A DNA stretch of 64,000 nucleotides. Origin: Escherichia coli. Lineage in GTDB: Bacteria > Pseudomonadota > Gammaproteobacteria > Enterobacterales > Enterobacteriaceae. A model generated the notes under the pieces. The model did not search any database. It was not told the DNA's origin and saw only the letters and a program-made list of their open reading frames with translations. Positions 46,203 through 46,274 of this stretch are shown piece after piece (the first letter of the stretch is position 1; every line of letters starts with the position of its first letter). The translations under genes were made by a program, and so were the position numbers. The stretch lies in NCBI RefSeq assembly GCF_044324875.1, contig NZ_CP172185.1. One strand, written 5' to 3'.

Positions 46203-46274
46203 TTAGATCATCAGGGCAAAAGTACCGGCCCAAACGATGACCATAAAAGAAATGCCCATAAAGAAATATTTCAC
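46203..46274 (-). CDS. ypdK: Small membrane protein YpdK (23 aa)
   Basis: Minus-strand ORF GTG-AAA-TAT... = (M)KYFFMGISFMVIVWAGTFALMI with ggagag SD upstream; matches my recollection of the YpdK small protein. Too short for the ORF track. Confidence 0.55.
   Translation of the reverse strand: MKYFFMGISFMVIVWAGTFALMI

Follow-up and report, generated by a model that had tools for sequence, protein, structure and literature searches.

Is the 72-nt open reading frame (ORF) that lies on the minus strand between alaC and lpxP of Escherichia coli a genuine gene, and if so, how is it expressed and what might its product do? We addressed these questions in a window of 64,000 nucleotides from the E. 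coli contig NZ_CP172185.1, to whose positions all coordinates refer unless another sequence is named. The features from which the analysis starts are the following:

46203..46274, minus strand: ypdK coding sequence (CDS), GTG start, 23 codons, TAA stop; product MKYFFMGISFMVIVWAGTFALMI
46274..46203, minus-strand letters of ypdK: GTG AAA TAT TTC TTT ATG GGC ATT TCT TTT ATG GTC ATC GTT TGG GCC GGT ACT TTT GCC CTG ATG ATC TAA
46282..46287, minus strand: Shine-Dalgarno (SD) sequence GGAGAG of ypdK, 7 nt 5' of the GTG
46155..46183, minus strand: ypdK intrinsic terminator, hairpin AAACAGGAGCC-ATCA-GGCTCCTGTTT at 46183-46158, then GCATTTTT
44900-46138, plus strand: alaC, convergent with ypdK
46630-47550, minus strand: lpxP, ending 355 nt upstream of the ypdK GTG

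The Reading Frame Is Very Probably the Annotated Gene ypdK

The first-pass annotation had described a GTG-started minus-strand ORF of 23 codons with a GGAGAG SD, and the letters bear this out, the ORF occupying 46274..46203 and the SD 46287-46282. The frame consists of GTG, 22 sense codons, and TAA, translates as (M)KYFFMGISFMVIVWAGTFALMI, and is separated from the SD by a 7-nt spacer, ATGTAAA. Its identity as YpdK, as the first-pass annotation proposed, was confirmed both by annotation and by profile search. Thus, in a 100%-identical strain (locus L001, 1804-1875, equivalent to window 46203-46274), RefSeq places the CDS "membrane protein YpdK" (WP_010723117.1) at identical coordinates, and the peptide reaches 57.5 bits, where the cutoff is 30, with the NCBIfam equivalog model NF033437.1 (YpdK), its residues 1-23 aligning with profile positions 1-23. 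The counterpart in K-12 MG1655 is b4680 (2496921-2496992), flanked by lpxP and alaC. Searches with the peptide returned no family in Pfam and no match among the PDB chains, and no PDB complex contains YpdK. A chromosomally tagged YpdK product was reportedly detected by Hemm et al. in 2008.

Within E. coli, a 901-nt query around ypdK matched 5,422 of 5,426 complete genomes, mostly at 95-99% identity, and among the matches listed alaC, ypdK, and lpxP all lay under the query match; the 101-nt segment made up of SD and ORF was at least 99% identical in 5,422 of the 5,426. Matches to plasmid records were discounted, these being chromosome-sized or chromosome-derived. PMC3009722 counts ypdK among 18 small ORFs that Hemm et al. 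reported and gives its product as a putative single-transmembrane peptide. Given this identity and the gene structure set out below, it is close to certain that the 23-codon ORF is the annotated gene ypdK and that it forms a small transcription unit of its own. The finding is correct and not new: the gene is annotated in RefSeq, an NCBIfam model is dedicated to it, and it was reported as one of the small membrane proteins of E. coli more than 10 years ago. At 72 nt, it is a gene of the sort that ORF callers with a size threshold miss.

The ypdK Frame Is under Protein-Level Constraint across the Enterobacterales

Taken alone, the ORF is unremarkable: 74 ORFs of at least 20 aa overlap the 4.5-kb stretch around ypdK, and a single 23-codon ORF is within chance, so the case has to rest on annotation and conservation. 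We collected 80 species-level loci from the Enterobacterales through the neighboring AlaC protein; because the loci were chosen through AlaC and not through YpdK, the test for the presence of ypdK is unbiased and non-circular. YpdK-like 23-mers were then sought in all six frames of each AlaC-anchored locus by an ungapped BLOSUM62 scan, leaving out as untestable the Escherichia albertii locus, whose sequence stops 50 nt past alaC. A YpdK-like ORF was found in 75 of the 79 testable loci, every time on the strand converging on alaC, with scores of 72-115 compared to at most 36 for the second-best 23-mer in any locus. The four loci without it belong to Erwinia endophytica, Symbiopectobacterium, Lonsdalea, and a record labeled Pseudomonas resinovorans.

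Together with the window strain's own locus, L001, the 75 positive loci make up a set of 76, in which the ORF is 23 aa long in 56 cases and 24 aa long in 20. A GGAG core stands at a fixed distance from the GTG in nearly all 76 and is invariant in a 30-sequence alignment. Conservation of peptide and SD across enterobacteria, which the first-pass annotation had named as a check, was therefore found in 75 of the 79 testable loci, with both the GGAG core and the GTG start kept. YpdK is near-invariant in some 5,400 E. coli genomes, and its conservation extends to several enterobacterial families.

To this we can add the pattern of synonymous and nonsynonymous change, which had been set as a test able to refute the gene and which favors coding. 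When 69 distinct nucleotide versions were compared, entropy per site came to 0.58, 0.19, and 1.13 bits for the first, second, and third codon positions, giving the order 3 > 1 > 2, and the mean was 0.62 bits across the ORF as against about 1.8 bits in the flanks. Pooled pairwise pN/pS was 0.276 in the YpdK frame, which held no stops. No other frame looks coding: +1 always contained a stop, +2 gave a pN/pS of 2.2, and the antisense frames either contained stops or gave 0.46-2.6. A purely noncoding reading of ypdK is excluded by these codon statistics, although part of the conservation near the start codon could reflect constraint at the RNA level as well as coding.

The same data bear on whether this could be a chance ORF in a conserved noncoding region, or a mini-ORF whose translation matters rather than its peptide. 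Short ORFs are abundant here, as the 74 of at least 20 aa in 4.5 kb attest, and the ypdK stop codon lies only 19 nt ahead of the terminator hairpin. Against this, the amino acids themselves are constrained (pN/pS 0.28, eight invariant residues, a length of 23 or 24 codons in all 76 loci), and, because the terminator comes directly after ypdK, there is no downstream gene on the same strand for its translation to regulate. We consider the probability of either version to be practically negligible and proceed with ypdK as a gene whose peptide is under selection.

ypdK Converges on alaC and Ends at a Mapped Terminator

The placement of ypdK just past the alaC terminator, between alaC and lpxP, held in its position and needed refinement in its reading, since the two genes are convergent and the hairpin between them serves ypdK as well. 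The stop codons of alaC and ypdK are 64 nt apart in the window and 36-90 nt apart in most loci. Between them lies a perfect 11-bp inverted repeat, the stem of which shows compensatory changes; a T-run on the ypdK strand follows the hairpin at 46158-46183, which makes the hairpin also ypdK's own terminator. Published Term-seq data (PMC7815308, supplementary file 1) include a 3' end at K-12 2497040(+) that is assigned to ypdK as "primary" and corresponds to window 46155, 3 nt beyond the hairpin. The curated Term-seq list of PMC7815308 contains no 3' end on the alaC strand at this hairpin.

On the other side of ypdK, the upstream gene lpxP carries a terminator of its own:

46563-46602, minus strand: lpxP intrinsic terminator, inverted repeat with 18-nt arms that are 83% complementary, then T6

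Its Term-seq 3' end at K-12 2496632 corresponds to window 46563 (PMC7815308, supplementary file 1). The distance of about 350 bp to lpxP given by the first-pass annotation was accurate (355 nt as measured), but the tie to cold-induced lpxP that it hinted at did not survive comparison. lpxP is near ypdK only in Escherichia, Citrobacter, Salmonella, and the Enterobacter cloacae group, sometimes 1 kb off, and a functional link between the two was rejected both on this adjacency in a minority of genera and on the lpxP terminator and ypdK promoter that intervene. The conserved genomic neighbor of ypdK is alaC, and the proximity of lpxP is incidental.

In the remaining loci, the upstream gene encodes an amidohydrolase, an MFS transporter, an EAL protein, an aromatic amino-acid lyase, or an ABC ATPase, and further a class A beta-lactamase (Kluyvera), a HicB-like protein (Serratia), or an MFS plus HlyD-family pair (Erwiniaceae). 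For the Enterobacteriaceae, these neighbors are unrelated genes, and the idea of a partner encoded by a conserved upstream neighbor was rejected there. Sixteen Erwiniaceae loci from Pantoea, Erwinia, and Mixta (among them L058:4554-7190, minus strand) have genes for an MFS transporter (~533 aa) and an HlyD-family membrane-fusion protein (~342 aa) immediately 5' of ypdK and co-oriented with it, 170-200 nt away. By analogy with AcrZ-type cases, this pair is a possible lead to a YpdK partner, though ypdK retains a promoter-like block of its own in these genomes.

Several further observations were made around the locus. In Kluyvera (L019:4729-5604, plus strand, and likewise L020), a gene for a 291-aa class A beta-lactamase lies ~370 nt from ypdK in divergent orientation and adjoins the alaC-type aminotransferase gene, an arrangement that we take to resemble the chromosomal context of the CTX-M progenitor genes. 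The gap between ypdK and alaC reaches 700 nt in Serratia (L072, L078) and 1.6 kb in Buttiauxella brennerae (L042), compared to ~50 nt elsewhere, implying insertions at the convergent junction, and in Serratia a HicB-like antitoxin gene lies 5' of ypdK. The Term-seq supplement also lists abundant 3' ends at K-12 2498307(-), equivalent to window ~44888 (plus strand), 12 nt upstream of the alaC ORF, and at K-12 2495560(+), equivalent to window ~47635 (minus strand), 85 nt upstream of the lpxP ORF; these ends in the 5' UTRs of alaC and lpxP may represent premature termination or processing. Finally, in E. coli O26 CFSAN027350, a 102.6-kb Stx2a prophage is inserted in what is described as the "mlaA-ypdK intergenic region" (PMC6667211), so in some strains phage DNA integrates on the lpxP side of ypdK.

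A Putative Promoter and an Upstream Palindrome Are Conserved

Conservation extends well beyond the ORF: about 250 nt 5' of the GTG (46275-46529, minus strand) are conserved in ~40 core Enterobacteriaceae loci, whatever the upstream gene. Two elements stand out in this region:

46427..46455, minus strand: putative sigma-70 promoter of ypdK, -35 TTGTCT at 46455-46450, 17-nt spacer, -10 TACATT at 46432-46427
46492..46509, strand unassigned: candidate regulator-binding palindrome, TGTCGCCGATATGAGACA in the window and TGTCG-N8-CGACA in other genera

In the promoter block, CTTG and GCGTACATTA, which contains TACATT, are invariant in all 35 core Enterobacteriaceae loci examined and keep a constant distance from each other, the -35 block reading CTTGT(C/A); an A-tract lies upstream and a GC-rich AGCGCC downstream. 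The Erwiniaceae have a related block, GCGTAAATTAGCGC, just past the stop codon of the upstream HlyD-family gene. A simple consensus promoter scan of the minus strand did not list the ypdK site. Going by conservation, the transcription start site (TSS) is predicted near 46420, which would give a leader of 146 nt. The palindrome, a conserved block in a 20-genus upstream alignment, is centered ~80 nt upstream of this predicted TSS. On the plus strand, a promoter-like match from the consensus scan (46504-46532, GCGACA-17-AATAAT) overlaps the palindrome and points toward the lpxP terminator and the candidate small RNA (sRNA) Tpke70.

The Predicted ypdK Leader Is a Conserved RNA Structure

We analyzed the structure of the predicted leader using two alignments (A1 and A2) and RNAalifold on 30 predicted transcripts. 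The resulting features are:

46275..46420, minus strand: predicted ypdK 5' leader, ~146 nt, with conserved helices P1-P3
46418-46412 pairing with 46405-46400, minus strand: leader helix P1
46393-46383 pairing with 46345-46335, minus strand: leader helix P2, long-range, with compensatory changes
46305-46300 (GCGTAA) pairing with 46293-46288 (TTACGC), minus strand: leader helix P3, abutting the SD, with compensatory changes

With the three helices in place, 87.3% of cells were paired, as opposed to 28-46% when the partners were slid, and double-change cells numbered 59 as opposed to 6-20; in a shuffle control of the leader pairing, none of 500 shuffles attained the observed values. The leader also carries a near-invariant motif, AGAATTCTG(A/G)GG, and the E. 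coli ypdK transcript folds at -92.1 kcal/mol with z = -4.6. A covariance model built from the leader (R1) matched the window once, at 46269-46420, and recovered the leader directly 5' of ypdK in loci on which it had not been trained, including those of Buttiauxella, Cedecea, and relatives; in the Erwiniaceae and Serratia loci it found nothing. Pairing of a CTCTC block with the SD was considered and dropped, as a by-eye check of A1 gave no consistent covariation with the SD.

An Rfam search with the leader returned no family, only two sub-threshold chance matches (23.5 bits against a threshold of 65.6 and 20.4 against 48). No description of the leader was found in Rfam or in the literature searched, which excluded most subscription journals, and the conserved structured mRNA leader seems to be the only part of ypdK that is apparently undescribed. 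Together with the elements above, the ypdK unit would span ~270-280 nt and would comprise a promoter, a structured leader of ~146 nt, a GGAG SD, the GTG, 23 codons, and a terminator.

The GTG Start Is Invariant and May Be Regulated

The leader ends at a start codon that never varies: all 76 loci, from Enterobacteriaceae, Erwiniaceae, and Serratia alike, have GTG, even though a single transition would yield ATG. Such invariance over 76 lineages suggests selection for a weak or regulated start. In a mechanically produced ORF list, the ypdK frame begins at an in-frame ATG at 46319 and spans 38 aa, which raises the question whether the true product might be this longer protein, MKSFRRNSNYAERCKVKYFF.... 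The frame is indeed open to that ATG in the window and in the other E. coli locus, but this extension from the ATG occurs in E. coli alone. In most other genera (27 loci), an in-frame TGA two codons 5' of the GTG leaves one open upstream codon, and where the frame is open upstream of the GTG, the in-frame starts there are not conserved. In addition, the NCBIfam profile spans the 23-aa core only, the conserved GGAG is spaced for the GTG and not for the ATG, and the extension falls within the covarying helix P3. Conversely, K2 and Y3 of YpdK are conserved from the GTG onward, which, with the extension confined to E. coli, supports the annotated GTG start; we give the 38-aa product scarcely any weight and retain the 23-codon gene.

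The spacer between SD and GTG holds, in E. coli, a minimal start-stop, ATG-TAA (46276-46281, minus strand). The frame of this spacer ATG, +2 in most other genera, is stop-free in all loci, but trivially so, through NTN codons, and was rejected with a pN/pS of 2.2.

How much of the locus, then, acts as RNA? One tentative and, on balance, improbable reading is that promoter, palindrome, P1-P3, the AGAAUUCUGAGG motif, and the GUG would constitute an undescribed family-wide regulatory leader, which might gate translation on a signal or might base-pair in the manner of SgrS/SgrT or AzuCR. Stated as a rival to a peptide-centered account, ypdK would be a dual-function or mainly RNA-level element, either a cis-regulatory leader or a base-pairing RNA, with the peptide as part of the story. 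Its appeal is that leader and ORF are equally conserved from genus to genus regardless of the upstream gene, that P2 and P3 carry compensatory changes and stand up to the slide and shuffle controls, and that the whole transcript is strongly folded (-92.1 kcal/mol, z = -4.6); the GTG held in 76 of 76 loci when ATG is one change off, and the almost invariant motif AGAATTCTGAGG, which pairing only partly accounts for, point the same way. Yet the protein-level constraint on the ORF is clear, so RNA is not the only product. Moreover, the ORF is kept in Erwiniaceae and Serratia even though the leader model has no hit there, no Rfam family matches, and no ligand, sRNA partner, or regulatory response is on record. 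We regard a dual-function or mainly RNA-level element as possible but doubtful.

A Type I Toxin Is Highly Improbable

A short hydrophobic peptide behind a long structured 5' UTR and a weak start codon also recalls the type I toxins, membrane-damaging hydrophobic peptides of the TisB, ShoB, ZorO, DinQ, or Ibs type that are silenced by their 5' UTR and an antitoxin sRNA. PMC3009722 reports a UV-responsive transcript that overlaps ypdK in part, and both the divergent promoter-like site and the nearby Tpke70 annotation lie on the opposite strand:

46566-46964, plus strand: Tpke70 candidate sRNA, 399 nt of the published sequence at 96.7% identity

Tpke70, however, is antisense to the 3' part of lpxP and not to ypdK, starting inside the lpxP terminator hairpin. 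It is annotated as 436 nt, whereas one paper gives ~40 nt, and the current MG1655 RefSeq record has no RNA feature at its position. That the ypdK leader might itself be Tpke70 was likewise rejected, as Tpke70 lies on the opposite strand over the lpxP 3' end, while ypdK and its leader occupy 46155-46455 on the minus strand. Our repeat and complementarity search for a cognate antitoxin sRNA in the region near ypdK found none: the divergent region and the ypdK mRNA share no extended direct repeat, the best being 76% over 17 nt and inside lpxP. Furthermore, ypdK is single-copy and strictly syntenic over at least three families, whereas type I loci are patchy and often multicopy, and a PADLOC search left ypdK unmatched. 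The SD is not sequestered by covarying helices either, P3 stopping just before it. On these grounds, we judge a type I toxin to be highly improbable.

YpdK Resembles a Single-Span Membrane Micro-Protein

Across 40 distinct sequences, the peptide follows the motif M-[KR]-Y-x-x-M-G-x-S-x5-W-x-G-T-F-x-L-M-x, with eight invariant residues (M1, Y3, M6, G7, S9, G17, T18, and F19). The mean Kyte-Doolittle hydropathy of residues 3-23 is 1.99, and the sole charged residue is K/R2; judged by composition and length, residues 3-23 are uniformly hydrophobic and long enough for one membrane span. A 24th residue, where present, is E, K, or A and so carries no uniform hint as to topology. Constraint is concentrated in two patches, YxxMGxS and WxGTFxLM, instead of a single stripe: a search for a single conserved helical face in YpdK gave no significant periodicity (P = 0.16), and the conserved residues, not confined to one face, define no clear single interaction surface.

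As almost entirely one hydrophobic helix, YpdK most probably spans the inner membrane once, its N terminus (the Lys2 end) probably being cytoplasmic under the positive-inside rule. By analogy with bacterial micro-proteins, it might then bind and modulate a larger membrane protein. The best-supported model for YpdK, by analogy with AcrZ, MgrB, MgtS, KdpF, and CydX, is a micro-protein that crosses the inner membrane once and associates with a larger membrane protein, though we hold it tentatively, at less than an even chance. The invariant residue motif, the invariant GUG start, the conserved promoter, and the covarying leader offer handles for the study of YpdK.

Comparison with Known Systems

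The window peptide and YpdK as cataloged (b4680, NF033437.1, WP_010723117.1) are identical in all 23 aa, in position, in strand relation, and in the GTG start, and nothing differs between them. The present analysis adds the phylogenetic range of ypdK, its coding statistics, and the putative promoter and the leader with its helices, for which neither Rfam nor the literature searched gave a description. Tpke70 shares the intergenic neighborhood of ypdK and was originally found by conservation there, but it lies on the opposite strand and outside both the ypdK leader and the ORF. The type I systems TisB/IstR-1, ShoB/OhsC, ZorO/OrzO, DinQ/AgrB, and Ibs/Sib resemble ypdK in pairing a small hydrophobic peptide with a long structured leader, but ypdK is single-copy, syntenic, and widely conserved, its conserved helices leave the SD unoccluded, and no complementary sRNA locus was detected nearby.

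In E. coli, AcrZ/AcrB, MgrB/PhoQ, MgtS/MgtA, KdpF, and CydX exemplify single-helix micro-proteins that modulate larger membrane proteins. YpdK differs from AcrZ, MgrB, MgtS, KdpF, and CydX in that we found no sequence relationship to any of them and that no co-oriented conserved neighbor marks its partner. Like them, however, YpdK is shorter than 50 aa, consists of one hydrophobic helix, is encoded by an independent small gene, and is conserved among enterobacteria.
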